DNA from: a virus
IMG/VR virus record: IMGVR_UViG_3300032326_001134
Coordinates: 32,001-96,000 of that record
DNA: 64,000 nucleotides
Reading direction: 5' to 3' (one strand)
Shown piece by piece: positions 3,164 to 29,261 of this stretch (its first letter is position 1; the number at the start of each line of letters is the position of its first letter). The translations under genes were made by a program, and so were the position numbers. Under the pieces are notes generated by a model. The model was not told where the DNA came from. It did not search any database and saw only the letters and a program-made list of their open reading frames with translations.

Positions 3164-3374
3164 TTTTTACCCCTTTAACTATAGAAACAATTTTATCATA
3201 ATATGAAGTTCCTATAAAATTTTTGTAATTACAAGAAAGGCAATATAAATATATTTCATCATTTAAATTTAAATTACAAAGAAGAGAGCCTTGATCCATA
3301 GGACATTCAAGTCTTGGAACAAGGCCCTCCTCAGATAAAGCTATATATTTAGATACGTATTGTATCCGCAGCAA
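3156..3374 (-). CDS. Small Zn-ribbon-like protein
   Basis: CPMD...CLSC pattern; AGGAG upstream. Confidence 0.7.
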   Translation of the reverse strand: MLRIQYVSKYIALSEEGLVPRLECPMDQGSLLCNLNLNDEIYLYCLSCNYKNFIGTSYYDKIVSIVKGVKND

Positions 3375-3384
3375 ATTTTGCTCC

Positions 3385-10870: not shown

Positions 10871-13162
10871 ATGAAAACAAAGATTCAAATAAGAAGAGAT
10901 ACGGCTGCAAACTGGGCTAGTAATAACCCAATTCTATCAGCAGGTGAATTTGGCCTAGAGTCAGACACTCAAAAAATTAAAGTTGGTAATGGCTTAGCAA
11001 ATTGGGCAGCCAGACCATATATAAACGTTTTACCATCAGACCTTGCTGAACTTTCACAAGATGCAGTAAATAATGCATTAACTGCTGGTAACGGTATAAC
11101 AAAAGAATACGATGATTTAAATAATACGATCACCATATCAGTAGACACAAGTATTATTGCAAATAAAGATTATGTAGACAATGCAATTTCTGGAGTCTTG
11201 GACGGAGCACCAGGTTTACTTGATACATTAAAAGAATTAGCAGCAGCAATTGATGATGATCCTGCATTTTTTACAAGCGTAGCAACAAATCTTTCAAATC
11301 ACGAAGCAGACACAACAAACATACACGGAATTGCAGATTCAGCAGAACTAGCAACTAAGACATTTGCAGCAGAACTTCTTACAGGATCAACAAAGTCCAA
11401 TATTACAATTACTGGTGATAAAAACGGACTCATAATTACAGCTGAAAATGGAGTAGCAGACTCAACCACATCAGATCTTGCAGAAGGAACAAATCTTTAC
11501 TTTACAGACGAAAGAGCACAAGATGCAGCAAACACTGCAATTGTTGCTGGTGAAGGATTAGATAAAACATACGATGATGAATCCAACACAATCACCCTTG
11601 ATATTGATTCAACAGTAGTAACACTAACAGACACACAAGCTTTATCAAATAAGACTTTAACTTCTCCCGTTATAAACGGAGCAACAGTTGGAGGAGATAT
11701 TATTCCTTCATCTGATGCCACATATGATTTAGGATCTCCTGAAAATAAGTTTAAAGATTTGTATCTATCTGGTGCAACACTTTATCTAGATACAGCCACA
11801 ATAGAACTACACTCTGGAAATATTCAACTTAGCCACAGTGGAAACACTACAATAATACCAATTGGAAACGGGAACCATACAGTAGCCACCCTAGATGGTC
11901 AAGAAACACTATCAAATAAAACTTTAACTAGACCAACTATTAACGGACCAGAGATTACAGAAATTGGTGGAACTCCACGTATTCATGGAATCTATCTTCC
12001 ATCACCACATTTTATTACTTTTGAGGGTGCAACAAATGATGAGTTTGAAACAGTTTTAACAACTGTAAATCCAACAGCAGATCACACAATTGCTTTACCA
12101 GATGCTTCAGGAACAATTGCTTTAACCTCAGACATTGCTGAACTTTCACAGGATGCAATAGATAATGCAATTGTAGCTGGTGTAGGACTTGACAAAGTTT
12201 ACGATGACGAAGCAAATACAATAACACTTGATATAGATTCAACAGTAACAACAAACTCTGGAACACAAACCCTTACAAATAAAACTATATCATTTGCAAA
12301 GGGTACAATTAGTTCCGCTGTGGGATATGACAATATAGAAGGATTTTTTGGACAAAACAACATAGTTGTTCTTCAAGATGCCCTTGATAAGGGTGGAAAA
12401 CTTAATATATCTAACGAGGGTGTTATTACAGTTCCATTTCCTGGAAATGGATATACTACTGGAGTAGCAACGATAGGTGGCGGAACTAGAGTTATCATAA
12501 CAGTTTCTGGAAATAATATTACAGGAACCATTAATCAGTTTAATGATTCTTTAACAGATGCAAACTTTGCTACCACAGATGGCGTAGAGTCTCTTACAAA
12601 TAAAACTTTGACTTCGCCAAAAATTAATGAAGACGCAGTACTTTCAGCAACATCTTCAGAATTAAATATTCTAGATGGGGCTACCATATCAACAGCAGAA
12701 TTAAATTATGTTGAAGGTGTAGTTTATTCAATTCAGGATCAAATAGATGAAAAGGCTCCAACAGATAGTCCAGAATTTACTGGAAACGTAGAGCTACCTT
12801 CAACAACGGTATTTGGTTCAAATACAGGAACAAGCGCAGGAAAATATTTAAGAACAGACGGAACAAACGTTTCCTGGGCATATCCAGTAATTCCTTATGG
12901 AAGCGGTGGATCAGCTAATCCAGTAAATGGACAGCTATTCTTTAATATGGATACACTATCATTACAGATATTTATGGATGGACAGTGGATTAAACTAACA
13001 TCTTATAATATTGATGGTGGAAATCCATTTACAACATCATTTGCAAATACGTTTGACGGAGGAAGTCCTTCAGTAGAACCTACATCATCATTAGATGGAG
13101 GAAATGTTGATTCATTCCCACCTGCTTCAGAAGGAACAGAAACAGATGGAGGAGAAATATGA
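10871..13162 (+). CDS. Fibre protein with Mtd-N/hyaluronidase-N-type N-terminal domain
   Basis: IQIRRDTAANW..NPILSAGEFGLESDT..KVGNG..W; three QDA..A..AG.G..K.YDD..NTIT repeats; TLTNKT repeats; four C-terminal DGG motifs. Confidence 0.8.
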   Translation: MKTKIQIRRDTAANWASNNPILSAGEFGLESDTQKIKVGNGLANWAARPYINVLPSDLAELSQDAVNNALTAGNGITKEYDDLNNTITISVDTSIIANKDYVDNAISGVLDGAPGLLDTLKELAAAIDDDPAFFTSVATNLSNHEADTTNIHGIADSAELATKTFAAELLTGSTKSNITITGDKNGLIITAENGVADSTTSDLAEGTNLYFTDERAQDAANTAIVAGEGLDKTYDDESNTITLDIDSTVVTLTDTQALSNKTLTSPVINGATVGGDIIPSSDATYDLGSPENKFKDLYLSGATLYLDTATIELHSGNIQLSHSGNTTIIPIGNGNHTVATLDGQETLSNKTLTRPTINGPEITEIGGTPRIHGIYLPSPHFITFEGATNDEFETVLTTVNPTADHTIALPDASGTIALTSDIAELSQDAIDNAIVAGVGLDKVYDDEANTITLDIDSTVTTNSGTQTLTNKTISFAKGTISSAVGYDNIEGFFGQNNIVVLQDALDKGGKLNISNEGVITVPFPGNGYTTGVATIGGGTRVIITVSGNNITGTINQFNDSLTDANFATTDGVESLTNKTLTSPKINEDAVLSATSSELNILDGATISTAELNYVEGVVYSIQDQIDEKAPTDSPEFTGNVELPSTTVFGSNTGTSAGKYLRTDGTNVSWAYPVIPYGSGGSANPVNGQLFFNMDTLSLQIFMDGQWIKLTSYNIDGGNPFTTSFANTFDGGSPSVEPTSSLDGGNVDSFPPASEGTETDGGEI

Positions 13163-14226
13163 GTTCAATACAATTAAAAAGAGGAACAGCTTCTCAATGG
13201 TTTACAAAAAATCCAGTATTAAAAAATGGAGAGCTTGGAATTGAATTGGATACCAAAAGAATAAAGCTTGGCAATGGTACAACTCAATGGAGATCTTTAA
13301 GCTATATTACAGTGATACCAGCAGATTTACAAAACACTGTTGGATCTTACCTAGAAGTAGTAGAAAAAGGAAATCCTGGTGGACTAGCAACATTAAATAC
13401 AGAGGGTTACATACCAGACTCTCAAATTCCAGCATCAATTGCAAGAGATGCAGAGATTGTGACAAGCTATAATGAACTTGATGACCTGCCTACATTATTT
13501 AGCGGAAGCTATAATGATTTAACAAATAAGCCAAATTTATTTAGTGGATCATACACTAATCTAACAGATAAACCAGCGCTATTTAGTGGATCATACACCG
13601 ATCTAACAGATAAACCAACAATTCCAAGTTTAACTGGATATGCAACTGAAACATATGTTGGAACTGCAATTTCAAACCTTGTAAGCTCCGCACCAGAAAC
13701 TTTAAATACTCTTAATGAATTAGCAGAAGCATTAGGAGATGATGCTAATTATGCTACAACAATAAGCACAGCTCTTGGGCTTAAGGCCACAATTGAAAGC
13801 CCTACTTTTACTGGAACCGTGGGTGGAATAACAAAGTCAATGGTTGGTTTAGGCAATGTTGATAATACAACAGACGAAAACAAGCCAGTGTCTACACTAA
13901 CACAAACAGCACTAAACTCTAAAGCAGATAAGTTAACTTCAATTTCCGCAAAGTCTGAATCTTATACAGTGCAGACAACAGATTTAGGGAAACTAATTGA
14001 GATGTCTAATGGTGGAACAATTAGCATAGAAGACTCAGCATCTTTTCCAGAAGGATTTACAATAGATATATTGCAAACTGGAAGTTCACAGGTAACGGTT
14101 GCTGGAATTGGAACCACTATAATTAATGCAACACCAGGATTAAAGCTTAGAACACGATGGAGCAGTGCCACTTTGATCAAGAGAAGCCTAGACCTTTGGG
14201 TGCTTTTGGGAGACCTGGCAGCATAA
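13159..14226 (+). CDS. Fibre protein (Mtd-N-type N-terminus; conserved C-terminal ATPGLKLRTRWSS domain)
   Basis: IQLKRGTASQW..NPVL..GE; LFSGSYxDLTxKP repeats; APETLNTLNELA motif. Confidence 0.8.
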   Translation: MSSIQLKRGTASQWFTKNPVLKNGELGIELDTKRIKLGNGTTQWRSLSYITVIPADLQNTVGSYLEVVEKGNPGGLATLNTEGYIPDSQIPASIARDAEIVTSYNELDDLPTLFSGSYNDLTNKPNLFSGSYTNLTDKPALFSGSYTDLTDKPTIPSLTGYATETYVGTAISNLVSSAPETLNTLNELAEALGDDANYATTISTALGLKATIESPTFTGTVGGITKSMVGLGNVDNTTDENKPVSTLTQTALNSKADKLTSISAKSESYTVQTTDLGKLIEMSNGGTISIEDSASFPEGFTIDILQTGSSQVTVAGIGTTIINATPGLKLRTRWSSATLIKRSLDLWVLLGDLAA

Positions 14227-15032
14227 TGTTAAGAAGATTTGGTAAATCATCAAAAAGAAAAGCTAGGGTTCCAAACTTAGTTAATCTTACATTAAGTCAA
14301 GCCCAATCTTTATTGTCATCTCTTGGCATTAGCTATACAACAAGTATCACAAGCACTAGCGACCAGAGCATTAATGGTAAAGTTAGAGAGCAAAATGTTG
14401 CAGAAAATGAAACTAAATTAGTTGGAGACAATGTTGAGATAAACTATTATTCATTTAGCTTTACTCCTTTTGGATTTACCCCTTTTGGATTCACACCATT
14501 TAGCTTTACCCCTAATTTATGTTTCGTGGTGGGCACAGACATATTAATGGCTGACGGATCTACTAAAAAAATTGAAGACATTGTAATTGGAGATTCTTTA
14601 AAAAGCTTTAATATACCAAATTTAGACGACGACTACGACCCAGATTTAATGAACACAGAGAATGCGTGGATTACGCCATCTACAGATGACTTTATAATCA
14701 CGCCAACCACAGTAACATATATTGGCAGAAGGCCTGTGCTAAAAACAATTAAATTTAATAACCTGCACAGATGCACAGAAAACCATGCTATTTTTGTTAA
14801 CAGAGGTGGAGACTATCAATGGCTAAAGGCAAAAGATGTTCAGGTTGGGGACTCTTTTATTAAATTTGACAAAACTGAAGAAATGGTTTCAAATAAAGAG
14901 ACAATAGATGAGTTAACTGAGGTAGTAGCAATTGACTGTGAAATAAAAGATTTTTATTTTGCTAACGGCATATTGGTTCACAATATTACCGTTACGGCAC
15001 CACCAGGAACTACAACACAATGGGTTTCATAG
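14226..15032 (+). CDS. PASTA domain + (F[GS]FTP)4 repeats + Hint domain protein
   Basis: VPNLVNLTLSQAQSLL..GKV.EQ (PASTA); CFVVGT block A, TENH block B, YFANGILVHN; start moved to ATG 14226 (TAATG overlap). Confidence 0.88.
   Translation: MLRRFGKSSKRKARVPNLVNLTLSQAQSLLSSLGISYTTSITSTSDQSINGKVREQNVAENETKLVGDNVEINYYSFSFTPFGFTPFGFTPFSFTPNLCFVVGTDILMADGSTKKIEDIVIGDSLKSFNIPNLDDDYDPDLMNTENAWITPSTDDFIITPTTVTYIGRRPVLKTIKFNNLHRCTENHAIFVNRGGDYQWLKAKDVQVGDSFIKFDKTEEMVSNKETIDELTEVVAIDCEIKDFYFANGILVHNITVTAPPGTTTQWVS
14454..14513 (+). repeat. Four 15-bp coding repeats (FSFTP-FGFTP-FGFTP-FSFTP)
   Basis: Directly read; synonymous codons differ between units. Confidence 0.95.
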
Positions 15033-15068
15033 GATTTACAATTTAATATAAAAGCAGTAAAATGGGGA

Positions 15069-15097
15069 TTGCCAAATAACTGCAAAACCCATATAAT
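15069..15097 (+). promoter_or_regulatory. Sigma-A-type promoter
   Basis: TTGCCA-17-TATAAT; GGAGGT RBS before ATG 15129. Confidence 0.65.
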
Positions 15098-15128
15098 AGG
15101 GTAATAGAAATATATCGGAGGTAACAGA

Positions 15129-17489
15129 ATGTCTGTTAGATTGCAATTTAGAAGAGGTACCGCATCAGAGTGGTTTGATGCTGATACTGTATTGGGAGAA
15201 GCCGAAATTGGCTATGAAATTGATACAAAAAAGATTAAAGTTGGAAATGGAATTACAGCATGGAACTCTTTAAGCTACGTAAACGTTGTTCCATCCGATT
15301 TAGTAAACACATTAAATGATTATGTATTAGTAGGAGATGTTGGAAACGCAGGCGGACCAGCAAAATTAGATTCAGATGCAAACTTATTGCTTCCAAATGG
15401 AAGAATAATTTTAGAGGGTGGCACAAACAACGATTATGAAACCACTTTACTTGTAGTAGACCCTACAGCAGATAGAACAATTACTTTTAAAGATGAATCT
15501 GGAACGGTAGCACTACTTTCAGACATTGATGCTGTTATTGGTGGAGCTCCAGGTGCCTTAGACACACTTAATGAACTTGCTGCAGCAATTAATGATGATG
15601 CATCATATGCCGCTACAATAACAAATGCTTTAGCAACAATAACTCAAGGTGGACTAGATCACGTATCTGCTGTTACAAATGTACACGGTATAGCAGACGT
15701 GTCAGAACTTGCAACAAAGACATATGCAGACAATACAGCCACTTCAATATCAAATTCAGCTGTGAGCACACACCTATCTGTAACAACAAACGTACACGGA
15801 ATTGCAGACACTCAAGATTTAATGAGAAAATCTGGATCTACAATGACTGGAATTTTAACTTTAAGTGATGATCCAACATCTAATCTACATGCAGCAACAA
15901 AGAGGTATGTAGATGATCATGTAGACACACACAACGCATCAGGAAACGATGTACATGGTATAGCAGATACAACTGCTCTTGCCACAAAAACTTACGCAGA
16001 TAATACTGCAACAACTATTGCAACAACTATTGCAACAGATGCAATTAACCTATTAACTACTTCTGATATAGAAGAGGGTTCACGTTTATACTTTACTGCA
16101 GTTAGAGCACAAGATGAAGCAAAAAATGTTATGTCAGATGGAGCCAACGAGGTTGTTACAGACAGTCTAGAGGTATCTACAAATGACTTTAACGTTGGAG
16201 AAGTTGCAAAGGGATTAAGAACAACTGATTCATACACTAATCCAATGGCAGTATTTTCAACAGCAGCATCAGATTATGCACAGGTTGCTATTAAAAATAC
16301 AACAAATGCTCCAGCTTCATCTAGCGATCTTATTATTTATGCCTCAAACGGAAATGATGCTTCTGGTTGGATAGACATGGGAATTACTGCACCAACGTTC
16401 TCAGACCCAGACTTTACAATTACTGGTGGTAACGACGGTTATATCTTTATGGAAGCCCCAGTAGGAACAACTGGAGACGGAAATCTTGTTATAGCAACTG
16501 GTGGTAATGGTACACATAACCACATTGTTTTTGCCGCAGGAGGACTACAGTCTAACAATACGCAGATGACTATTTTCCCAGATGAAAATGTTCACATTGA
16601 AATTGATACACCTTCTACATCACCAACAACAGGTGCACTAACAGTAGTCGGTGGAGTTGGTATTCAGGGAGACTTGAATATTAACGGAGATGTTAATATT
16701 GAAGGAACTATTGTTTTTGGAGGAGAAGGCACAACTGTAGAGACATCAAACCTCTCAGTAACTGATCCACTAATTTTCACAGGAGATGGCAACGCATCAG
16801 ACATTGTTGACCTAGGCTTTATTGGAGAATATACTACTGGTGGTAGCACCAAGTATTCAGGTATTGTCCGTGATGCCTCTGACGGAGTTATAAAGGCTTT
16901 TAAACACGCATCAACAAAGCCAACTTCAACCGTTAACTTTGCAGAAGCTGGAATTGAGTATTCAGACATACAAGTTGCAGCAATAAATGCATCATCATTA
17001 ACAGTAGGGGATATTTCAAATACAGAATTTGGATATCTAAATGGAGTAACATCAGCAATTCAAGATCAACTAGACGATAAAGCTCCAACTGATACTCCAA
17101 CATTTACTGGCTTAGTAACAATAGCAGCATCTGGAATAGCATTTGCAGATGGTACTCAAACAAAAGAAGGTGTTCCATCAAGAACTCCAATTATTGCAAA
17201 AACATCAAATTATACTCTTTCATCACTAGCCGAAAGAGACAGCCTAATAGAAGTTGATTCGACAGACCCAGTAACAATCATGATTCCAACAAATTCTGCA
17301 GTCGCTTTCCCAATAGGAACGACATTAGATATACTTGGAGTAAATACAGGATTAATTACAATTCAAGGAGACTCTGGAGTAGCCGTAAACGCTACACCTG
17401 GATTAAAATTGCGTACACGATGGTCTTCATGTACACTACTTAAGCGTGGAGAAAACTCTTGGGTAGTATATGGAGATTTGAAAGAATAA
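15129..17489 (+). CDS. Fibre protein (Mtd-N-type N-terminus; conserved C-terminal ATPGLKLRTRWSS domain)
   Basis: LQFRRGTASEW; repeated NVHGIAD..LATKTYAD; TTGALTVVGGVGI; C-terminus paralogous to the 13159 ORF. Confidence 0.8.
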   Translation: MSVRLQFRRGTASEWFDADTVLGEAEIGYEIDTKKIKVGNGITAWNSLSYVNVVPSDLVNTLNDYVLVGDVGNAGGPAKLDSDANLLLPNGRIILEGGTNNDYETTLLVVDPTADRTITFKDESGTVALLSDIDAVIGGAPGALDTLNELAAAINDDASYAATITNALATITQGGLDHVSAVTNVHGIADVSELATKTYADNTATSISNSAVSTHLSVTTNVHGIADTQDLMRKSGSTMTGILTLSDDPTSNLHAATKRYVDDHVDTHNASGNDVHGIADTTALATKTYADNTATTIATTIATDAINLLTTSDIEEGSRLYFTAVRAQDEAKNVMSDGANEVVTDSLEVSTNDFNVGEVAKGLRTTDSYTNPMAVFSTAASDYAQVAIKNTTNAPASSSDLIIYASNGNDASGWIDMGITAPTFSDPDFTITGGNDGYIFMEAPVGTTGDGNLVIATGGNGTHNHIVFAAGGLQSNNTQMTIFPDENVHIEIDTPSTSPTTGALTVVGGVGIQGDLNINGDVNIEGTIVFGGEGTTVETSNLSVTDPLIFTGDGNASDIVDLGFIGEYTTGGSTKYSGIVRDASDGVIKAFKHASTKPTSTVNFAEAGIEYSDIQVAAINASSLTVGDISNTEFGYLNGVTSAIQDQLDDKAPTDTPTFTGLVTIAASGIAFADGTQTKEGVPSRTPIIAKTSNYTLSSLAERDSLIEVDSTDPVTIMIPTNSAVAFPIGTTLDILGVNTGLITIQGDSGVAVNATPGLKLRTRWSSCTLLKRGENSWVVYGDLKE

Positions 17490-17500
17490 AGGAGATATAA

Positions 17501-18787
17501 ATGACTAAAAGATCTGGTAGAAAATCGCAGGCAGCCAATGACTTTATTGAGCCATTAAAGCCTACTATTACAAACGCAGTAAATGTCACTAACAGACCAT
17601 ACAATAATGGATCGGTAGACATTAGTTTTGTCATGAGCCCAGCATCTCCAATAGCAACATCTTATTTAGTTCAAACGGTTGTCCCAGAAGGACAAACCCC
17701 GATAACTGCAACAGGAACCTCGTCACCAGTTACTATTACTGGACTACTCTCTGCAACTAATTATAGATTTACAATAACCGCATCTAATGATATTGGAGAT
17801 TCACCAGTATCTGATCAAAGCTCAGAAGTTTACGTTATAACAACTCCTAAAACTCCACAAACTCCCTCTATATCAAACAACGGAGCAGAAACAAATAACG
17901 TTACTTGGACTGCTACTCAATTTGATGGTGGCTCCGCAGTTACAAACTATGAATTATTAGATGATGAAGGAAGAACCTGGTCATATAACGCATCAACATT
18001 TTCCGCAAATATTAATGATGGAGGAAACTCCTATCAGCGAGTTAAAGTAAGAGCAAGAAACGCCAATGGCGCCTCAGAGTATTCAGAGTTTAGCAACCAG
18101 GTTCAAACAACACCATTTAGCTTTGCACCGTTTGGCTTTACCCCATTTAGCTTTACCCCGTTTGGATTTACACCGTTCGGATTTACACCGTTCGGATTTA
18201 CACCAAAATCAGTCGGAGCAGAAACAATTATAAAATCAAAAGTTCCAGAGGGATTAATATTAGCCCACAATCTAAGCGTAGGAGATGTTTTATATTCTGC
18301 TAACATTGAAGGTATAGATGTTTCAAATACAGCAATATTAGAATATTTACAAAACTGGTCCGCAAATAGCGCATCAATATCTCAAGATGTAGAAACAACT
18401 ATTGTTGCAATGGCAGCAAGAATTTCTTCTGAAGGCTCTGTTGTTATTAATGGAAACAAATACTCAAAGCAACACTTTATTTTAGTAAAAAGAAATAATG
18501 AAATTCAATTCCAGCCATCAGCAGATGTTTTAGAGACAGATTTTATATTTTCACCATCAGAATCAGATTGGGTAGCAGTTACTGATTATAAAATTACAGA
18601 TCAAAGAGAACTTTTAGTTTCAATTGACGTTGAGCCGTTTGATGTATTTTTTACAGACAATGCATTGGTTCATGACTCATATAGAGCCTCAGACGATCCA
18701 AACGTACTGACTTCTAGCGATGAAACATTTAGTGATAAATTAGATGCAATGTATCAACAATGGAGAGATTCTCAAGACCCACAATAG
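17501..18787 (+). CDS. 2x Fn3 + (F[GS]F[TA]P)6 repeats + atypical Hint domain protein
   Basis: Fn3 motifs ITGL..ATNYRFTITASN..G and DGGSAVTNY..VRARNANG; Hint-like S1-VGAET..LSVGD, SKQH, VFFTDNALVHD-S. Confidence 0.82.
   Translation: MTKRSGRKSQAANDFIEPLKPTITNAVNVTNRPYNNGSVDISFVMSPASPIATSYLVQTVVPEGQTPITATGTSSPVTITGLLSATNYRFTITASNDIGDSPVSDQSSEVYVITTPKTPQTPSISNNGAETNNVTWTATQFDGGSAVTNYELLDDEGRTWSYNASTFSANINDGGNSYQRVKVRARNANGASEYSEFSNQVQTTPFSFAPFGFTPFSFTPFGFTPFGFTPFGFTPKSVGAETIIKSKVPEGLILAHNLSVGDVLYSANIEGIDVSNTAILEYLQNWSANSASISQDVETTIVAMAARISSEGSVVINGNKYSKQHFILVKRNNEIQFQPSADVLETDFIFSPSESDWVAVTDYKITDQRELLVSIDVEPFDVFFTDNALVHDSYRASDDPNVLTSSDETFSDKLDAMYQQWRDSQDPQ
18116..18205 (+). repeat. Six 15-bp coding repeats (FSFAP FGFTP FSFTP FGFTP FGFTP FGFTP)
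   Basis: Directly read. Confidence 0.95.
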
Positions 18788-18799
18788 TCAGGATTTAAT

Positions 18800-19447
18800 T
18801 TGTTTAAGCAATTAAAAAAATTACACCTAATGGGACTTTCTGGTGTAAAATATTTTAAGGGAAAACCAATACCCAAATTTAGAAGGTACCCAGAGTATAT
18901 TAAGGGAACCTGGTCTCAATATACTGTTTTTATGGACAAGGGAAACAATTTAGCAATAGAGTGTTTATATAAAGACAATAATAACGAATCTGGAACAATA
19001 GTCATGTCTAATTTTATTAATAATGACTACCCAATCTCATGGGCAACAATTATTATAGATGGATACGATAAAGATCATTACACTGCAGTGACAGATAGAT
19101 TTTATACAAATCCACTACATAGAAGAAAAAAATACCTAGAATCTTTAGCACTTATTGGATACCCAGTATGGTGTACATTCTTTAAAATATTACCAAGACT
19201 TGGACCAGGATATACTGAAGGAACACAAAAAATGGCTTTAAGCGGACTGTCTATGATATCGTCAGCTGCTAAAAAAAGAATAATTTCAAATAGCAATAAG
19301 GCAGAAAAGGTTGTTAAGGGTGGACTCGTAGAAGGTTTAGTTCCTTCTATAAATATGCCAGAAGAACTAGCTGTGTACAAAGACCCAGTGTTCCCAGCAT
19401 TATTTCACTCTATAAGCGTTTGGGAGCCAAATGATAAAAAATATTAA
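18800..19447 (+). CDS. Hypothetical protein, possible GNAT-fold acyltransferase
   Basis: DRFYTNPLHRRKKY resembles GNAT motif A; GYTEGTQKM resembles the downstream motif. Confidence 0.4.
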   Translation: MFKQLKKLHLMGLSGVKYFKGKPIPKFRRYPEYIKGTWSQYTVFMDKGNNLAIECLYKDNNNESGTIVMSNFINNDYPISWATIIIDGYDKDHYTAVTDRFYTNPLHRRKKYLESLALIGYPVWCTFFKILPRLGPGYTEGTQKMALSGLSMISSAAKKRIISNSNKAEKVVKGGLVEGLVPSINMPEELAVYKDPVFPALFHSISVWEPNDKKY

Positions 19448-19994
19448 ATCCATAAATAACGAACTATTATTTTCAGAATATAATAAAATGGTTTCTGAAA
19501 TGTATGAGCACGTATATAAGTTTAGTCCAGGATTAAAACTTGGATTTAAGCCTAAAAAAATATCTTTGGTAGACTATAGAACATTTAACTTTTTTGGCAT
19601 GTATAGTAAAAATATACACTCTTTATATAGAGAAATAAGCGGTATGACAAAAAGCTTATGTGCAGAAAGCAATATTAACTTTGAAAGAAATTCTTTTTAT
19701 TTGCTTGGCAATATAGTTAAAAATGAAACATTGCCAATAGGAACCTATATAAACTTTGCCCCAAACTATAAAACAACTTTTATGGGCCTCTATGTAATTA
19801 GATCAAATAATGATAGAATATCTATAGATAACAAAATACTTGAACTGGAGGAAGGACAATTAATTATGCTAAACTCTGGATCAAAAATTTTATTTGAAAA
19901 TATTAGCGATAATTTAGTAATGTTATCATTTAATATCTCCCCCATAGAATATCTTTATAAACAATACTATCAAAAATGGATACCAATCTCATGA
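19431..19994 (+). CDS. Degenerate 2OG-Fe(II) oxygenase-like paralog of the 22169 ORF
   Basis: YRTFNFF..IHSLYREIS vs WREYNVF..IHKLYKNIS; both end Q(K/H)WIP; lacks HxH/H ligands. Confidence 0.55.
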   Translation: MIKNIKSINNELLFSEYNKMVSEMYEHVYKFSPGLKLGFKPKKISLVDYRTFNFFGMYSKNIHSLYREISGMTKSLCAESNINFERNSFYLLGNIVKNETLPIGTYINFAPNYKTTFMGLYVIRSNNDRISIDNKILELEEGQLIMLNSGSKILFENISDNLVMLSFNISPIEYLYKQYYQKWIPIS

Positions 19995-20707
19995 TCAATA
20001 TAGAATTTATTCCAAAATTTAGACTGTACAGTAAAGTATTTCCAGAGCCAGTTAGCGTAGCTTCCTCGATACCAGAATGGTGGAAAACACAGGAAAGTCA
20101 TTTAAATAATGATCAAAATGTTTACAGGGGAACAATGCTTCTTACCGTAAAGAAATGTCAATCAGTATTTGACTCAATGACTTTTGGATATTATTTAAAA
20201 TGCCCAACCGATATATCTATAGATGCTACTGGAGACACTTTAAGGGTTCAGCTAACTTCAGATATAATGGGAATGCAGCAACATCTTGTTTCAAACCATT
20301 TAAAAGAACAAATGGCTAAATACCCGATTCCAGAATATTTTCATCCAGAAGTTGTCAGAATACATCCAATGTGGCTGGTGCAAACAGAAGAAGGCTATAG
20401 CTCTTTATTTGTTGCACCAATGCACGGAGACGATTCTCCAATCAAAGCCGTCCCAGGAGTAATAGACACAGACGATTACCCGTCAGACGGATACTTATCT
20501 TTTTTTGTTAAAAAAGGGTTTAAGGGAATAATTAAACAGGGGACTCCAATTATTCAGGTTATTCCTTTTAAACGAGATGACTGGGAAAGCTCTATTAATA
20601 AAGAAAAAGATTCTGACTTTAAAATAAAAGAAAAAAATTTAGGAGTAAGATCAGTTTTTCAAAACGGATACAGAATGAAGTTTTGGAAAAAGAAAACGTA
20701 TAGATGA
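19991..20707 (+). CDS. DUF6065-like protein
   Basis: IPEWWK, TVKKC..FDSMTFGY, PGVIDTD, IKQGTPIIQVIPFKRDDW; ATGA overlap gives start 19991. Confidence 0.6.
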   Translation: MINIEFIPKFRLYSKVFPEPVSVASSIPEWWKTQESHLNNDQNVYRGTMLLTVKKCQSVFDSMTFGYYLKCPTDISIDATGDTLRVQLTSDIMGMQQHLVSNHLKEQMAKYPIPEYFHPEVVRIHPMWLVQTEEGYSSLFVAPMHGDDSPIKAVPGVIDTDDYPSDGYLSFFVKKGFKGIIKQGTPIIQVIPFKRDDWESSINKEKDSDFKIKEKNLGVRSVFQNGYRMKFWKKKTYR

Positions 20708-21435
20708 CAACTAAAATAGTAAACAGGGTTCCATACGAGTCTGACTCTTGGTCATTGATGTCTAACATGAATTTTGAACAAATAGTTAATTTTTCTAATG
20801 TATTTAACAAATGGAAAGAATGGTCATACGTTAAAAATAGCCCATTGCATAAAAAATCTATACTTAAACCAGTAAACATGTATGTGTCTCATTTTTCAAA
20901 TCAGCCAGAAGTAATAAGAATTTCTGACACATCAGCGTATCTAAGATACTATAGTTATGCAGACATACTTATACAAATAGCAGACCCACCAATGGGGCAT
21001 AAGGGTATATTTAAATCTAGTCCAATAAATAGTTTATTTTATGCTACGGATAAATGCTGGTTAAGACAATTTTATCCTTCTCCAAATGAGTACAATATAA
21101 ATAAAAAAAATGCTATATCGGATAGGATGTTTAAAATATATATACCTTGGTTTTTAGACATGGATATAAAATATTCAGTTAAAACAAATAAAGAAGATTC
21201 TTCAATTGTAGCAATAGAAAAAGAAGACTATTTTACAAAAACAAATGACAATGTTATAATAAAAGAAGCAAATTTTGTTGATTTTTATTTTACAAAATCT
21301 GAAAATCATATGCAAGATAAAGTATGCGGATTAATAAAAAAAGATTCGTATTTATTTGATATAGAAATTAAAGCAGATAAAAAAACAATTAAAAAGATTA
21401 TAAGGGAATATGAAAAAAAAAGAATTAAAGGTTAA
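20704..21435 (+). CDS. Hypothetical protein (possibly divergent DUF6065-like)
   Basis: FKIYIPWF and GLIKKDSYLFDI weakly echo its neighbours' PMW and GIIKQGTPIIQ motifs. Confidence 0.5.
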   Translation: MTTKIVNRVPYESDSWSLMSNMNFEQIVNFSNVFNKWKEWSYVKNSPLHKKSILKPVNMYVSHFSNQPEVIRISDTSAYLRYYSYADILIQIADPPMGHKGIFKSSPINSLFYATDKCWLRQFYPSPNEYNINKKNAISDRMFKIYIPWFLDMDIKYSVKTNKEDSSIVAIEKEDYFTKTNDNVIIKEANFVDFYFTKSENHMQDKVCGLIKKDSYLFDIEIKADKKTIKKIIREYEKKRIKG

Positions 21436-22168
21436 ATTTACCCCAGCCTTTATTATGAATACAGAAGGCATATCAGACTATAGTAATTTTAATGAGCCAC
21501 AAGAGTCAAAAAGATATATTCCGTCTTGGTATAAAAAGCTATCTAAATTTTACAAATCAAATAGCATCAGCAAACTACACCCAGTAAACGATAGAGGAAC
21601 GGACGGCAGCGCAGCCTCAACAAAATTATGCATGCCATTTTTTGATGCATTAACATCTGGATACATGTATACCCTAGATTACGATCTTAATGTGAGCCAG
21701 GATAAAAATGGATTTCCTACACTTTCTTGGGAGGGGTCTAATATGATAGTCGATAAAAGATTAATGATAGATGTCCCAGTACCTACACAGCATCACCCAA
21801 TGCATTATGGGTGGAAGGTTAATTGGTATTCAGAAACCCCAAAAGGATATTCTTTGTTAATAACGCATCCATTAAATAGACACGATTTACCATTTACAAC
21901 AATGAGCGGAATAATAGACGCAGACCTTTGGCACACTCCAGTATTTACATCCTTCTTCCTAAAACGCAACTTTATTGGTATAATACCTAAAGGAACTCCT
22001 ATATTTCAAATGATTCCTATTAAAAGAGAAGAGTGGTCTCTTGAAATAGATTATTCAAATGAAAATATAGAACAAAATCAGATTAAGGATGAAAAAAGAA
22101 GATCTTTAATATATGCATATTATAAAAATATAATATGGCAAAGAAAACAATATAGAGGGAAAATATAA
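21410..22168 (+). CDS. DUF6065-like protein (paralog of 19991)
   Basis: IPSWYK, TKLCMPFFDALTSGY, TPKGYSLLITHPLNR, SGIIDAD, IPKGTPIFQMIPIKRE. Confidence 0.65.
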   Translation: MKKKELKVKFTPAFIMNTEGISDYSNFNEPQESKRYIPSWYKKLSKFYKSNSISKLHPVNDRGTDGSAASTKLCMPFFDALTSGYMYTLDYDLNVSQDKNGFPTLSWEGSNMIVDKRLMIDVPVPTQHHPMHYGWKVNWYSETPKGYSLLITHPLNRHDLPFTTMSGIIDADLWHTPVFTSFFLKRNFIGIIPKGTPIFQMIPIKREEWSLEIDYSNENIEQNQIKDEKRRSLIYAYYKNIIWQRKQYRGKI

Positions 22169-22813
22169 ATGGAAAATATGTATATGAATCAGCCAACAGG
22201 TAAAGAGCATAAATTTTTTGAGAGATACTTAGACAATGATCTCCCAGAGCTTGCAGAATTTTTGCAAAACCAATATGCCAATATGGAAACCCTTAAATTG
22301 TCTGGAATAACAAAGGTCACGCCAAGAGATCACTGGCTATCATCTGATAGCGTGTCCACAATCAAATGGAGAGAGTACAATGTTTTTCAGTTTTATCATG
22401 AGTCTATACATAAGCTGTACAAAAATATATCGGAAACTATTAAGGAAGCCTGTGAATACTATGGTATCAACTTTGAAGAACAGAAATACATGGTACAGGG
22501 TTGGTTTAATATTAATTACAATCATAGTGGTAAGCTTGATTGGCATGATCACGGTGGCCCTTATGCCCCGTATTTTCATGGTTACTATTGTGTAAACGCA
22601 GAGCCTTCAACTACTTACTATAGTGTTTTTGGTAATCAGGTAGAGAACCACAATAAAAATAATCGAATGATTATTTCAGAAATGGGTCACCCGCATGCAA
22701 TGGGTGACTGGGACTGGGAAGGTCCTAGAGTAACTATTGCTTATGACATAATGCCTTTAAAAAGCTTAATTACAAACAAGGCAGAGCCACAACATTGGAT
22801 ACCATTACTGTGA
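22169..22813 (+). CDS. 2OG-Fe(II) oxygenase (HxH type, TIGR02466-like)
   Basis: WFNIN..WHDH..HGYYCV..HPH..RVTIAYD. Confidence 0.75.
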   Translation: MENMYMNQPTGKEHKFFERYLDNDLPELAEFLQNQYANMETLKLSGITKVTPRDHWLSSDSVSTIKWREYNVFQFYHESIHKLYKNISETIKEACEYYGINFEEQKYMVQGWFNINYNHSGKLDWHDHGGPYAPYFHGYYCVNAEPSTTYYSVFGNQVENHNKNNRMIISEMGHPHAMGDWDWEGPRVTIAYDIMPLKSLITNKAEPQHWIPLL

Positions 22814-23628
22814 CAAGCAATATTGGAATTTGTATATATTCATATCAAAACAAAAAGCTATTAGACTTAATAGAAGAAATTAAAGAAAAGTCTAGTAAAA
22901 AAAATATGTTGTATTTTTATGTCATAGATCAAAATAATTTGGACAGAACAAGAGGGCTCGACGATCCAGAATTTTATCATTCCATTTCATATAACTATGT
23001 AAAATGGGATTCAATTAAAAGCCCAATTGAATATAAACAACAAGCATTAAACATTTTAAATAAAACATATTATATGCAGGTTGAAGACAACTTAAGCTTA
23101 ATACAAAATTGGGACGAATATGCAATAGAATTCATATCAAACAATAAAAACTCAATTTTATCTGGAAATTCTACCGTCTCGCTAGATAATAAAAACTTGT
23201 TTCAGATAGCAGCTACAAGAACGCCATCAAAACATTTTAATGAGATAAAGTATATAGATAGAAATTTTTTATTTGGTCTTACTGAAGATTTTAAAAAGAT
23301 AGATTACCCTAAATATTTAAAGTACAACGGGGAAGAAGAATCTATTTCAATAGATATGCTAAACAGGGGAATAAAGATTTATAACTTCCCAGATGAATAT
23401 TTATCAATACATAAAGTTGATATAGAAAAAGAATATGTTCCCTTTTCTTTAAACCATAATTATAATAAATTTGTTAGCCTGTATAAGGATCAAGTTAAAA
23501 AGCATTTTGGTTTAAAAATAGAGACATTGCCGTTTGAAGATAGCGATGTCCTGTACGACCCATTGCAGTCTCAAACTGACAAAATTGGTGGGTTAAGATA
23601 TATTAATAAAGTTAAGGAGCTTAGATAA
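22810..23628 (+). CDS. Divergent Gnt1/GlcNAc-transferase-like glycosyltransferase (possibly inactive)
   Basis: Aligns by eye to the 53907 ORF: I.I.S(Y/F)Q..L..I.KSS, YYxQ....xxWD, GEE...S....G; DSH motif replaced by EDN; GTGA overlap start. Confidence 0.55.
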   Translation: MTSNIGICIYSYQNKKLLDLIEEIKEKSSKKNMLYFYVIDQNNLDRTRGLDDPEFYHSISYNYVKWDSIKSPIEYKQQALNILNKTYYMQVEDNLSLIQNWDEYAIEFISNNKNSILSGNSTVSLDNKNLFQIAATRTPSKHFNEIKYIDRNFLFGLTEDFKKIDYPKYLKYNGEEESISIDMLNRGIKIYNFPDEYLSIHKVDIEKEYVPFSLNHNYNKFVSLYKDQVKKHFGLKIETLPFEDSDVLYDPLQSQTDKIGGLRYINKVKELR

Positions 23629-24170
23629 TGTTAATAAAAATAGTAGAAGACTTTATAACAGAAGAAGATGCAAATACTTTAATTAATGAAATGAAAAACC
23701 CGTCAGAAAGAAATGAGTATCCTGTATATTACAAAGACCGAAATGGTGGAACCGCATTCCCTTATAATAAAAAAGTTATGTCATTGTTAAAAAAATATGC
23801 AATACATTCAAATAAAATACAAAAAGAATTTTTTGGATTAGAAAAAGATGTTATTGTTACAAAAGCTTTTGGTTCGTTTTGGATGCCTGGAACAAGCGGA
23901 GCCCCACACATAGATGCAATAGAAAAAGAGCCATTTATTGAATACAGTACAGTAATCTATTTAAATGACGAATATGAGGGTGGAGAAATTTATTTTCCAA
24001 GACAATCTTTCGAATATAGTCCTAAAAAATACTCAGCAGTATTTTTTCCAGGAAATAGCATTGACTATGTCCACGGAGTAAAAGAAATAACAAGCGGTAG
24101 TAGATTTACAGCTCTCTATATGCAGTCTACAAAAAAAGACTTTATTGATCCAGATTTTGAAGGGTGCTAG
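23628..24170 (+). CDS. Prolyl-4-hydroxylase-like 2OG-Fe(II) oxygenase
   Basis: HID, STVIYLNDEYEGGEIYF, HGV, GSRF. Confidence 0.9.
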   Translation: MLIKIVEDFITEEDANTLINEMKNPSERNEYPVYYKDRNGGTAFPYNKKVMSLLKKYAIHSNKIQKEFFGLEKDVIVTKAFGSFWMPGTSGAPHIDAIEKEPFIEYSTVIYLNDEYEGGEIYFPRQSFEYSPKKYSAVFFPGNSIDYVHGVKEITSGSRFTALYMQSTKKDFIDPDFEGC

Positions 24171-24171
24171 A

Positions 24172-24825
24172 ATGAATTATAAAGAGTTATCACTAGGGGC
24201 AGTATATTATAAAAATATTATAGAAGACCCACAGAGTGTCATCAATAAAATAGAAGAACTAGAGCAAAAAAGAAACGAGTCAGAAGGATACAGGTCGGAG
24301 TTTGTAAAGCCATGGCAAGCATGGGACTATAATAACGGAAATAAAGAAAAAACTATTTTTTGCTGGCAAAAGTTTTTACCAAAGCCTGAAGACATAAAGG
24401 TGGATGACTTGTTCTATAAAGAGCAGTTTGAGATATCTTCAATTCTTTTTGATGGACTAGAAAAAGGACTTAAGCATTATTTTTCTTTATACCCATATGC
24501 AGAAAAAAATATTAAATCTAGAGAAAAAACAATGCATCTTTTAAAATATAAAGAAAGCGGTTTCCTACCAGCGCACTCAGATCATGGAATAAGTAGCAGG
24601 GTATTGTCTGCTCTTTTATATTTAAATGATGATTACGAAGGAGGGAACATAAGATTCCCTCACGCAGAAATAAACATTAAGCCAGAAGCTGGAAGTTTAT
24701 TATTTTTTCCTTCAAACTTTGTTTATGTACATGAAGTAGATGCAGTAACAAGTGGAACAAGATACTCTTTGCCTAACTGGTATCATAATAGAAAAAACGC
24801 ATATTACTCAGATGGAACAGAATAA
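24172..24825 (+). CDS. Prolyl-4-hydroxylase-like 2OG-Fe(II) oxygenase
   Basis: HSD, SALLYLNDDYEGGNIRF, FFPSNFVYVHEV, GTRYS; start moved to ATG 24172. Confidence 0.9.
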   Translation: MNYKELSLGAVYYKNIIEDPQSVINKIEELEQKRNESEGYRSEFVKPWQAWDYNNGNKEKTIFCWQKFLPKPEDIKVDDLFYKEQFEISSILFDGLEKGLKHYFSLYPYAEKNIKSREKTMHLLKYKESGFLPAHSDHGISSRVLSALLYLNDDYEGGNIRFPHAEINIKPEAGSLLFFPSNFVYVHEVDAVTSGTRYSLPNWYHNRKNAYYSDGTE

Positions 24826-25523
24826 TGTTTATCGTTACAGGATCTAGTAGTGGAATAGGAAATGCAATTGTAAACAGGCTTTTAAAAAACGGACATTCTG
24901 TTTCAGGAATTTCAAGAAACATTCCAAAAAATGGTTCTGGATTTAAAACATATCAAGCAGACGTGTCTGATAAAAAATCAATTATAGAAATTGCAGAAGA
25001 CCTAAAATCACAAAACATAACAGTAAGTGGCTTAATAAATTGTGCTGGCTTATCACAAGATTTTTTTATTGCTGATTGGACAAAAATGCCAGCGGAAGAA
25101 ATTCAATCAATTTTTGGAACAAATATTATTGGAATAATAAACACATGCCAGTCATTTGTGCCATTAATGAATAGTAAGGTTCACACTCCAATTATAAACA
25201 TTAGCAGTCTCGCAGCTCATGCAAATTCAGATATTTCAGTCTATGCATCTAGTAAGTATGCTGTTAATGGATTTACTAGATCTTTATCTAGAGTTTTAAG
25301 AGAAACATCAATAAGGCCAAATTGTATAGCTCCAGGAATGATTAAAACAGAAATGACAAAGCACCTACCAGAAGAAATATTTAATAGAATTTTGTTTTTA
25401 TCTGGTCAAACCCTTAGCAGCAAAACATTTACGACAGAAGATATATGCGATGTGGTAGACATGTTAATTGATGAAAAATCAAACAGCTTAACTGGACAGA
25501 CATTCCACATAGGCGGATACTAA
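24825..25523 (+). CDS. Short-chain dehydrogenase/reductase (FabG-like)
   Basis: TGSSSGIG, INCAG, NISS, YASSK, IAPGMIKTEM, LTGQTFHIGG. Confidence 0.93.
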   Translation: MFIVTGSSSGIGNAIVNRLLKNGHSVSGISRNIPKNGSGFKTYQADVSDKKSIIEIAEDLKSQNITVSGLINCAGLSQDFFIADWTKMPAEEIQSIFGTNIIGIINTCQSFVPLMNSKVHTPIINISSLAAHANSDISVYASSKYAVNGFTRSLSRVLRETSIRPNCIAPGMIKTEMTKHLPEEIFNRILFLSGQTLSSKTFTTEDICDVVDMLIDEKSNSLTGQTFHIGGY

Positions 25524-27677: not shown

Positions 27678-29261
27678 ATGGAATTCATTAATGATGACGA
27701 AGTCAGCGCAGAAACTATTGACATATCAAACTCAGCAGATTGGTTTAAGTTTAATAATAAAGAAGTGGTTGTAGACACAGACCCATTTAACATAGAGGCT
27801 CAAGAGCTAAAAAAGGTGAACGGACTTAGTACAACATTCCGTAGAAAAGTTTCAAGAGATATCCAGAAGAGACTTGTGGGTCAAGAAGGAACAGGAACTC
27901 AGCAAAATTTATTGCAGCAAGCAGTCACTGGCTACGCAATGTTCGACCTTGTTCAGCCAGTTTATAATTTAGAATATTTATCAAAGATCTATGAAATATC
28001 CCCATACAACTACGCAGCAATTAATGCAAAGGTTGCCAACATAGTTGGGCTGGGATATTCTTTTGTAGAGACAAAAAAAGCAAACGATGCTTTAGATAGC
28101 ATAACTGACCCTAAGCAGTTAGAACGTGCTCGTAAAAAACTAAATAAGCTAAGACAAGATTTAGACAATTGGCTTGAGGAAACAAACGAAGAAGAAACTT
28201 TTACAGAAACATTAATCAAAGCATATACAGATTTAGAGGCAACTGGAAATGCCTATATTGAAATAGGAAGAACGGTTGCTGGAAACATTGGATACATAGG
28301 TCATATTCCATCTAAGACAATGCGTGTTCGTAGACTACGTGACGGATTTATTCAATTGCTATATGGCAAGGCTGTTTTCTTTAGAAACTTTGGAGATCAA
28401 GAAACACTAAATCCAATAGATGGTGGCCTAGAAAGACCAAATGAAATTATTCATTTAAAGAAGTATACTCCAATGAATAACTATTATGGAATACCAGACA
28501 TAATTGCAGCACAAACGGCAATGGCTGGAAATGAATTTTCTGGAAAATATAACCTAGATTACTTTGAAAATAAAGCAGTTCCAAGATATATAATTACAGT
28601 TAAAGGCGCAAAGCTATCACCAGAGTCAGAAAGAAAACTTCTTGAGTTTTTCCAAGTTGGTTTAAAGGGTAAAAATCACAGATCCCTATACGTCCCGCTA
28701 CCAGCCGATACATCAGACTCTAAAGTTGAATTTAAAATGGAGCCAATTGAAGCTGGAAGTCAAGAAGGCTCATTTGAAAAATATCGCAAATCAAATAGAG
28801 ATGAAATACTATTGGCACACAGAGTTCCAATTAATAAAATTGGAGTTCCAGAAGGAGTAAGCCTAGCATCTGCTAGAGATGCAGATAAAACATTTAAAGA
28901 GCAGGTGTGCGGTCCCGCCCAAGATATTTTAGAGAAAAAAATCAATAGAATTATATCAGAAAAAACAGATGCTCTAGTTCTTGAGTTTAATGAGTTGACT
29001 TTGACTGACGAAGACACGCAGTCTAAAATTGACGAAAGATATTTAAGAATGCAGGTAATTACTCCTAATGAAGTAAGAATTAGAAAAGGAATGATTCCTA
29101 TGGATGGTGGAGACGAAGTGGTTGATTTACAAGCACAGGCAGCAGAAATTAAAGCCCAAGCCTTAAATACTAGAAATAGAACCCAAGAAAGATCTGCAAA
29201 TTCACCAGATAGTTCTGGGGAGGCCAGAAATCCAAAAGGTGAAGGTAGAGTCACTGCTTAA
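27678..29261 (+). CDS. Portal protein
   Basis: LEATGNAYIE, EIIHLK..YYGIP, YFENKAVP, AHRVP, ITPNEVR..GM.P..GGD. Confidence 0.92.
   Translation: MEFINDDEVSAETIDISNSADWFKFNNKEVVVDTDPFNIEAQELKKVNGLSTTFRRKVSRDIQKRLVGQEGTGTQQNLLQQAVTGYAMFDLVQPVYNLEYLSKIYEISPYNYAAINAKVANIVGLGYSFVETKKANDALDSITDPKQLERARKKLNKLRQDLDNWLEETNEEETFTETLIKAYTDLEATGNAYIEIGRTVAGNIGYIGHIPSKTMRVRRLRDGFIQLLYGKAVFFRNFGDQETLNPIDGGLERPNEIIHLKKYTPMNNYYGIPDIIAAQTAMAGNEFSGKYNLDYFENKAVPRYIITVKGAKLSPESERKLLEFFQVGLKGKNHRSLYVPLPADTSDSKVEFKMEPIEAGSQEGSFEKYRKSNRDEILLAHRVPINKIGVPEGVSLASARDADKTFKEQVCGPAQDILEKKINRIISEKTDALVLEFNELTLTDEDTQSKIDERYLRMQVITPNEVRIRKGMIPMDGGDEVVDLQAQAAEIKAQALNTRNRTQERSANSPDSSGEARNPKGEGRVTA

Follow-up and report, generated by a model that had tools for sequence, protein, structure and literature searches.

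In the Hedgehog and Hog proteins, a C-terminal Hint domain removes itself via a thioester at its N-terminal junction, and some Hog proteins carry Thr/Pro-rich tracts upstream of it; the bacterial intein-like (BIL) domains reportedly cleave rather than splice. In the Skp1 pathway of Dictyostelium and Toxoplasma, the prolyl hydroxylase PhyA acts first and Gnt1, a glycosyltransferase (GT) of family GT60, then adds GlcNAc to hydroxyproline (Hyp). The chlorovirus PBCV-1 is said to encode a collagen-type prolyl 4-hydroxylase (P4H) as well as Pro-rich repeat proteins of its own that serve, or may serve, as substrates, and mycobacteriophage glycosyltransferases reportedly modify the Ser/Thr-rich tails of the phages' own virion proteins. 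The present work concerns two phage genes, here called hintA and hintB, and the ten genes that follow hintB. They are located in a stretch of 64 kb (hereafter the window, whose positions are used unless stated otherwise), which corresponds to bases 32001–96000 of a 115,110-bp IMG/VR record (IMGVR_UViG_3300032326_001134; 92% complete by CheckV). A literature search yielded no description of a repeat tail combined with a Hint cap, a paired fibre and composition-matched enzymes, and no cultured phage matched the region in a megablast search. The best overall explanation of this locus, to which we assign about an even chance, is that it encodes Hint-capped fibre accessory proteins along with a modular enzyme cassette that acts on Pro/Thr tracts. 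Among the unexplained genes of aquatic phages, those for 2-oxoglutarate (2OG)-Fe(II) oxygenases and P4H-like proteins are some of the most common. In the present locus, such genes lie in a late structural operon beside genes of a large unnamed protein family with a Pro/aromatic tract and a Hint cap, and the FxFTP repeat found here is a candidate substrate, amenable to testing, for functionally unexplained phage oxygenases. If the explanation is true, phage host recognition in freshwater Actinobacteria would gain a new post-translational layer; if it is false, the cluster would represent one more auxiliary-gene island.

The start codon of hintA overlaps the stop codon of the fibre gene upstream of it as TAATG, and hintB is separated by 11 bases from the gene for a fibre of 786 amino acids (aa). 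The proteins encoded by hintA and hintB (268 and 428 aa, respectively) have the common layout that had been proposed in a sequence-only reading of this DNA, viz. a basic N-terminus, an adhesin-type domain, a repeat and a Hint domain, and this layout is borne out by the translations and by the results from Pfam, TRF and BLASTP (Table 1). The adhesin-type region is a PASTA domain in HintA (PF03793, E = 3.1e-8) and consists of two fn3 stretches in HintB (Pfam, E = 9.2e-10), whose basic N-terminus also carries the conserved peptide SQxANDFxEP. The repeat units of HintA are, in order, FSFTP-FGFTP-FGFTP-FSFTP, followed by N-L-C, whereas the repeat of HintB is followed by K-S, i.e., by a Lys residue before Ser1 of the Hint domain. 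In both translations the repeat stops one or two residues before the Hint nucleophile, as this reading had also stated. Both repeats are tandem in the DNA as well, with a period of 15, and no other Pro-containing repeat tracts are found inside the window. The two proteins are paralogous across the repeat and the Hint domain (BLASTP, E = 2e-18), and an orthologue of HintA is present in a related locus (L009:4065-5093; E = 8e-23).

TABLE 1. Positions in the window of the fibre, Hint and cassette genes and of an additional glycosyltransferase gene.
Positions	Strand	Feature	Evidence
10871-13162		Tail-fibre gene, Mtd_N N-terminus	Pfam
13159-14226	+	Tail-fibre gene, 355 aa, upstream of hintA	Mtd_N E 1.5e-14
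14226-15032	+	hintA: basic N-terminus, PASTA, 4 x F-x-F-T-P, BIL-type Hint, 15-residue tail	
14454-14513	+	hintA repeat FSFTPFGFTPFGFTPFSFTP	TRF period 15, 3.6 copies; translation
14520-14984	+	hintA Hint, Cys1 to terminal Asn	Alignment; 2LWY profile match; Hom_end_hint block A E 3.3e-6
15129-17489	+	Tail-fibre gene, 786 aa, upstream of hintB	Mtd_N E 1.4e-12
17501-18787	+	hintB: N-terminal peptide, 2 x Fn3, 6 x F-x-F-x-P, Hint, conserved 36-residue tail	
18116-18205	+	hintB repeat FSFAP FGFTP FSFTP FGFTP FGFTP FGFTP	TRF period 15, 6.3 copies
18209-18676	+	hintB Hint, Ser1 to terminal Asp	Alignment, profile
18800-19447	+	215-aa protein, possibly GNAT-like	9/30 Atlas look-alikes GNAT, score 0.91
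19431-19994	+	Degenerate paralogue of 22169 oxygenase, metal-binding His lost	Alignment
19976-20707	+	phrog_7084 / divergent DUF6065, dUTPase/dCTP-deaminase-like fold	PHROG E 3e-43
20704-21435	+	243-aa protein travelling with the cassette	Syntenic in detached cassettes
21410-22168	+	Second phrog_7084 / DUF6065-like paralogue	PHROG E 6e-38; alignment
22169-22813	+	2OG-oxygenase-fold protein, invariant HDH...HPH...R	AlphaFold2 (AF2) pLDDT 83.5; Foldseek
22795-23628	+	Divergent GT-A, GT60-like glycosyltransferase	PF11397 E 0.0017, 18.3 bits vs cut-off 21
23628-24170	+	Prolyl-hydroxylase-like 2OG-Fe(II) oxygenase, HID...H...RFT	phrog_61 E 1.5e-15
24145-24825	+	Prolyl-hydroxylase-like 2OG-Fe(II) oxygenase, HSD...H...RYS	PF13640 (2OG-FeII_Oxy_3) E 1.6e-16
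24825-25523	+	Classical short-chain dehydrogenase/reductase (SDR)	adh_short E 4.1e-38
53907-54818	+	PF11397 (GT60-type GlcNAc transferase), intact, outside the cluster	E 2.6e-35, 123 bits, DSH motif

The 355-aa fibre upstream of hintA ends in a TPGLKLRTRWSS...GDL domain that is common to the 786-aa fibre upstream of hintB. The corresponding C-terminal motif (TPGLKLRT.WSS...GDL) is conserved in 16 of 17 fibres, from diverse loci, whose genes lie directly 5' of Hint genes, and the N-terminal peptide SQxANDFLEP is common to the Hint proteins. We read HintA and HintB as accessory components of the tail-fibre module, each encoded after a fibre with this common C-terminal domain, and the pairing of fibre and Hint protein is, in the loci compared, the most stable association of the family. 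The gene order suggests that the Hint-repeat protein may bind to its paired fibre. In the earlier proposal of a fibre-tip adhesin, the placement at the fibre tip comes from gene order only, and this part of the proposal is not supported.

The family to which these proteins belong is large. Relatives of hintB number 104 in IMG/VR, and when a Hint profile, based upon an alignment of 26 such domains from related loci (including those of HintA and HintB), was searched among 1.84 billion proteins, it retrieved 1,194 representative clusters at E ≤ 1e-10 and, with the looser limit of E ≤ 1e-3, 7,254. At least two FxFxP units precede the Hint domain in 40 of the best 150 clusters. Nearly all of the 37 clusters without FxFxP that were inspected have another short aromatic/Pro-rich repeat at this place, the alternatives being FFPP, HFPP, PPGFFA, YYNPPP, GAFGAF and poly-Pro. 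The number of repeat copies in the relatives varies from 2 to 23. Ten clusters were looked up, and all of their members are metagenomic and are labelled 'hypothetical protein' or unnamed. In addition, three related loci (L053, L061, and L078) encode the same protein stopping right after the repeat, with no Hint domain.

In comparisons with the PDB, the best solved match of the Hint profile was a BIL domain (2LWY, E = 1.3e-8), and several inteins were also matched (e.g., the gp41-1 intein, E = 1.8e-7); the Pfam Hint matches for single sequences fall under the cut-off. The phage domains resemble the BIL domain of C. thermocellum (2LWY) in being mini-Hint domains of about 155 residues without an endonuclease, with Cys or Ser at position 1, a TxxH motif and a terminal His-Asn or His-Asp. 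They differ from BIL domains in that they are C-terminal in fibre-module proteins, always directly after an aromatic/Pro-rich tandem repeat, and in that HintB has Ser1, His-Asp, and Ser+1. The Hint part is thus assigned to a known domain, of the BIL type, in a new context. All 26 aligned domains have Cys or Ser at position 1. The block B T-x-x-H motif is represented by TENH in HintA, which has Cys1 and ends in LVHN-I, and by SKQH in HintB, which has Ser1 and ends in LVHD-S; the block B His and the penultimate His are retained in both, so that each has the full set of motifs of the cleavage type. The characteristics of a splicing intein were not found in these two domains: in HintA the terminal HN is followed by Ile, the HD then Ser of HintB is atypical, and the domains are C-terminal and not inserted into a conserved host protein. 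As HintA has no +1 nucleophile, it is considered to be of the cleavage type (BIL-like) and not a splicing intein, whereas splicing of HintB (Ser1, His-Asp, Ser+1, conserved tail) is a minor possibility. The Hint domains of HintA and HintB probably excise themselves, which would yield a PASTA or Fn3 protein with a free FxFTP tail. In this process, the Hint domain would make an N-S or N-O acyl shift at Leu-Cys in HintA and at Lys-Ser in HintB and would then remove itself, so that the mature protein would end in the repeat tract. This predicted product is the form that the Hint-less relatives encode directly.

An alternative, which we consider unlikely, is that the Hint domain is retained as a non-cleaving folded C-terminal module of a virion protein, with the repeat serving as an extended linker. 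The range of copy numbers of the repeat is linker-like, and some of the relatives have other C-terminal domains after the repeat (the HintA orthologue in L009 has further Pro-rich segments ahead of its Hint domain). A Cys-type clade ending in LVHNK (L045, L047, L056, L058, and L077) has Gln in place of the block B His, and Pro often precedes its Cys1. The motif set of this clade is unlike that of HintA and HintB and it may use a different mechanism or not cleave at all, which also counts against self-removal in that cleavage may not be general across the whole family. The members of this clade also share a conserved Cys in a CEPxDWF block. Further, a protein of cultured Erwinia jumbo phages that ends in a Hint domain is annotated as a virion structural protein. 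However, the conservation of Cys or Ser at position 1 in such diverse domains, the retention of both His residues in HintA and HintB and the existence of homologues that terminate at the repeat all argue against a retained, inactive module.

The Erwinia protein (gp112 of Alexandravirus jumbo phages, phrog_38766) is a structural-module protein whose gene adjoins that for a tail fibre, and its Hint domain is C-terminal and ends in VHN. In contrast to HintA and HintB, it contains a Pro-rich tract of collagen-like GXY repeats, which is split from the Hint domain by a folded domain, and the similarity over the Hint domain is only 28%. No annotated hydroxylase is present in the 3-kb flanks of this locus. 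The protein gp112 of Erwinia phage pEa_SNUABM_16 (L324:1963-3405), a 'virion structural protein', provides a possible laboratory model for the processing of virion proteins by Hint domains.

The ten genes after hintB are co-directional and they overlap or abut, the gene calls agreeing in this regard with the sequence-only reading. No terminator-like site was found in the intergenic gaps between hintB and these genes; a promoter-like site is present at 15069–15097, ahead of the gene for the 786-aa fibre. Two of the ten genes (beginning at 23628 and 24145) encode the P4H-like proteins that had been predicted, as indicated by PF13640, phrog_61 and intact HxD...H motifs. The 24145 protein scores 61.5 bits against PF13640 (cut-off 27) and matches P3H1 and the B. 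anthracis P4H with E = 1.4e-4; the 23628 protein has no Pfam match and matches the B. anthracis P4H (5IAX) with E = 3.3e-4. The HxD...H iron triad and the RxS/T 2OG-binding residue are present in both (HSD...VHEV...RYS and HID...VHGV...RFT), and their closest solved relatives are protein prolyl hydroxylases. The structure 5C5T was not among the sequence matches of the P4H-like proteins at E ≤ 0.01. The arrangement differs from that in PBCV-1, a eukaryotic virus with a single enzyme and (PAPK)n-type repeats, with neither a Hint cap nor gene adjacency.

The 22169 protein was predicted to form the double-stranded beta-helix (DSBH) of 2OG oxygenases, and Foldseek matched its model to PHD1, 3BVC, and 2RG4. 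It had no sequence match, tblastn against cultured phages was empty and the Pfam results for all members of its family were noise. Genes of the 22169 type are the most conserved neighbours of FxFTP-type Hint genes. Of the two HxH-type 2OG oxygenase paralogues suggested earlier, the 2OG fold is confirmed by modelling for this protein, but the other (19431-19994) is without metal ligands. The glycosyltransferase of the cluster (22795-23628), which had been called Gnt1-like, has a weak match to PF11397 and can be aligned with the intact PF11397 gene of the same genome (53907-54818), but it scores below the cut-off and its DxH motif reads EDN. The intact gene scores above the cut-off and keeps the DxH motif, and its product is thus another candidate for a glycosyltransferase of proteins, encoded in the tail module and apart from the cluster; one of the tail genes that it follows (50891-53269) carries Listeria-Bacteroides repeats. 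The occurrence of P4H-like oxygenases and PF11397/GT60-type transferases in one phage genome is reminiscent of the Skp1 pathway, but this phage is without a Skp1-like target and the transferase within the cluster has the divergent features noted above. In the glycosylation of mycobacteriophage virions, other GT families and capsid and tail-tube targets are involved, and there are no hydroxylases and no Hint domain.

For the other genes of the cluster the results are more varied. The SDR at the end of the cluster was correctly recognized from the outset. Two of the proteins that had been called DUF6065-like belong to phrog_7084, probably a divergent form of DUF6065; they score 18.4 and 14.7 bits against DUF6065 (PF19541; cut-off 26.6), whereas a relative in locus L276 scores 96.7 bits, and the family profile also retrieves bacterial DUF6065 proteins. 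The third (20704-21435) is unproven; it had no family match and hhalign with the DUF6065-like proteins gave a probability of 12%. For the AF2 model of the 19976 protein (pLDDT 85.8), the top 22 rows of a fold search with VIA were all dUTPase or dCTP deaminase (Z 9.5–5.6, the next row being 4.0), the best having Z = 9.5 and a root-mean-square deviation of 3.1 over 120 aligned residues, and Foldseek concurred (E = 5.6e-4). PF00692 (dUTPase) had no match in the genome at E ≤ 0.1, and a GxIDxD sequence in the DUF6065-like protein resembles, by eye, motif III of dUTPases. In about 40 of the 80 loci with bacterial DUF6065 genes (Rhizobiales, Hydrogenophaga, and others; L166-L245), the neighbours are an S8 subtilase, an ECF sigma factor and a protein of 260 aa; this neighbourhood was considered as a functional clue but it yielded no lead. 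The suggestion that DUF6065-like proteins are tailoring enzymes does not agree with their dUTPase-like fold and with homologues located by nucleotide-metabolism genes or subtilases. The first gene (18800-19447) had no match in Pfam or PDB, and its assignment as GNAT-like is only a lead from Atlas. Its GNAT motif (Q/R-x-x-G-x-G/A) is degenerate, whereas a homologue in L320 has RGKGIA; homologues of this gene are found directly after the Hint gene in phages where the cassette is elsewhere. When profiles of the 22169, DUF6065-like, GT and 18800 families were compared with PDB sequences, nothing useful was retrieved.

A relationship between the enzymes and the repeats is indicated by the composition of the tracts, which was surveyed in about 150 related phage loci, with counts made over 55–70 dereplicated loci (Table 2). 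Counted over 8 kb, the P4H-like copies have a median of 0 in the Pro-free class, 2 in the FGFTP class and 9 in the FFPP class (Spearman 0.64), and in L276 (10523-18356) an FFPP tract with 40% Pro is followed by nine PF13640 paralogues, a clear DUF6065 and an SDR in a row. A GT accompanies 24 of the 36 tracts that are rich in Thr versus 4 of the 34 that are Thr-poor, and in the FFPP clade it is present only where the tract has Thr-rich segments. Phages with a detached P4H/GT cassette, at a distance of more than 50 kb, have a Pro-free Hint repeat (FGAFGAF), and in many loci of this class a protein with PA14 and a long tract of (PEPT)n is encoded 2–4 kb from the cassette. The proteins of this kind (L120:353-2188 and relatives, L117-L144), encoded 2–4 kb upstream of the cassette, are 600–720 aa in length with PA14, coiled-coil-like segments, (PEPT)n and a hydrophobic C-terminus. 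In the genome studied here, a third P4H-like gene lies outside the window (3235-3936 of the record; hidden Markov model (HMM) E = 2e-20), about 3 kb downstream of a (PPAEE)n gene. This (PPAEE)n gene extends over 113894-115110 joined to 1-196 of the record, if the ends are joined.

TABLE 2. Enzyme genes in the 6 kb downstream of the Hint gene, by class of repeat tract. The 63 terminal Hint genes counted are dereplicated, and each is followed by 6 kb or more of sequence.
Tract	P4H-like	22169-type	GT	DUF6065-like
Pro-free (FGAF)	0/6	0/6	0/6	5/6
FGFTP	21/33	30/33	24/33	25/33
FFPP	21/24	0/24	1/24	19/24

Judged from these patterns, it is roughly as likely as not that Pro/Thr tracts of this kind are substrates of the P4H-like, 22169-type and GT enzymes. 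We infer this modification from the enzyme family, the operon position and a repertoire that follows tract composition only. The most likely targets of the two types of oxygenase and the GT60-like transferase would be low-complexity tracts in phage proteins that are rich in Pro and Thr, and the FxFTP tails of HintA and HintB would be the best candidate substrates in the genome, acquiring hydroxyproline and possibly O-HexNAc on Thr or Hyp.

The principal rival of this explanation, which we regard as less probable but a serious contender, is that the cluster is an auxiliary-gene island in a plastic slot between fibre and portal genes with no functional tie to the Hint proteins. Its enzymes would then act on nucleotides, DNA, small molecules or the host envelope, and their adjacency to hintB would be an inherited gene order. 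A number of observations speak for such an island, or weigh against a dedicated operon or against the explanation that we prefer. The core cassette, consisting of 20704-type, DUF6065-like, 22169-type and GT genes and one or two P4H-like genes, is present in at least 25 loci without a fibre, Hint or FxFxP gene within 6 kb. Three genomes with the cassette have the fibre-Hint pair more than 50 kb away, and one complete genome with the cassette has no Hint gene. Conversely, of the 33 Hint genes of the FGFTP type, 12 lack a P4H-like gene in the 6 kb downstream and 9 lack a GT. The relatives of the 22169 family in IMG/VR (387) outnumber those of hintB. In L050, this slot, between the Hint and portal genes, is occupied by a class II ribonucleotide reductase (RNR; L050:13450-15480), and the detached cassettes of related phages are flanked by carbamoyltransferase and APS kinase. 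The cassette includes dUTPase-fold proteins, and the DUF6065-like homologues in haloviruses and in a cyanophage adjoin thymidylate synthase, DNA polymerase or RNR. Elsewhere in the genome there are two more PF13640 genes, as well as a P450 and a sulfotransferase. The P4H assignment itself is based upon weak similarity (E of about 1e-4 to the solved P4Hs). Lastly, fibre and portal HMM matches place all of the loci in one broad phage lineage with a conserved gene order, and because of this shared lineage the raw correlations overstate independence. A paired test on the Hint tree gave only four supported contrasts, with P4H presence changing in the predicted direction in about two of them and in the opposite direction in none (p about 0.5), a non-significant result from a test without power.

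On the other hand, every repertoire-tract correlation that was tested lies in the predicted direction, the detached cassettes are again found near Pro/Thr-rich repeat proteins and the block sits inside the structural late operon, and these observations, as well as the protein prolyl hydroxylases that are the nearest solved relatives of the oxygenases, argue against an unrelated island. DNA hypermodification (a TET/JBP-like oxygenase with a GT and a carbamoyltransferase) was considered as the best reading of the cluster and was rejected: searches of the genome found no homologue of thymidylate synthase/hydroxymethylase and no C5 methyltransferase to feed a TET-like pathway, and the similarity to Tet_JBP is negligible (E = 0.063). 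A role in DNA modification is weakened by these absences, and it remains part of the island alternative, e.g., for the dUTPase-fold proteins. The ten genes are a modular enzyme cassette in a late operon, which is not dedicated to hintA and hintB. The co-occurrence proposed earlier is seen in that the enzyme repertoire follows tract composition, but the cassette also occurs far from or without a Hint gene, and the idea of a dedicated modification operon was not upheld.

The sequence-only reading had gone further in proposing a dedicated system similar to those for ribosomally synthesized and post-translationally modified peptides (RiPPs), in which tailored repeat core peptides are ligated C-terminally by the Hint (thio)ester for display at the fibre tip. 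This we consider improbable. It fits with the position of the repeat, whose end lies one or two residues ahead of the nucleophile in both genes and immediately ahead of it in the family as a whole, with a motif set suited to (thio)ester formation, with enzymes that are adjacent and co-directional and with their match to tract composition. However, with their folded PASTA or Fn3 domains the precursors are multidomain proteins and not leader-core peptides, and Pfam and PHROG scans of the ten genes revealed no RiPP families, recognition element, leader protease or exporter. The cassette, as noted, is shared with loci lacking Hint genes. Ligation chemistry cannot be essential where homologues (L053, L061, and L078) stop at the repeat, and the existence of these Hint-less homologues also argues against obligatory transfer to a nucleophile. 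Acylation, likewise proposed, found no support, the copy of the GNAT lead in the window being degenerate. What stands of the earlier interpretation is the Hint-repeat family, the intact P4H-like oxygenases, the GT60-like transferase and the match in composition; dedication, RiPP character and ligation do not. In comparison to Hedgehog and Hog proteins, the phage proteins are without a sterol-recognition region and nucleophile transfer is not indicated.

A more speculative possibility, which we view as a long shot, is that of a covalently reactive appendage, in which the tail would be hydroxylated and glycosylated and the Hint (thio)ester would be resolved by a specific nucleophile rather than water, the tail becoming attached there. 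The nucleophile could conceivably, though with little likelihood, be a residue in the C-terminal domain of the paired fibre or host cell-wall material bound by PASTA or Fn3. In this reading, the battery of enzymes would co-evolve with the composition of the repeat.

With regard to the source of this DNA, the window has a GC content of about 35% and nearly all of its genes from 4 kb on are carried by the + strand. The portal protein (27678-29261; Phage_portal, Pfam E = 3e-32) is 56–58% identical to the portals of Streptomyces phages with genomes of 120–134 kb. The source is probably an uncultured freshwater (lake) phage with an actinobacterial host, the host being likely because of this resemblance of the portal and because of the PASTA domain in HintA. 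Upstream of the fibre genes, which are all three of the Mtd_N type, a class II (B12-type) RNR is encoded at 5095-7029, and on the - strand (560-3063) a gene for a P450 (E = 2.8e-70) overlaps a sulfotransferase-like gene (E = 1.5e-6), an odd pair for a phage. Downstream of the portal gene, an open reading frame of 2,095 aa (36456-42743, + strand) probably encodes the tape measure or another large tail protein.

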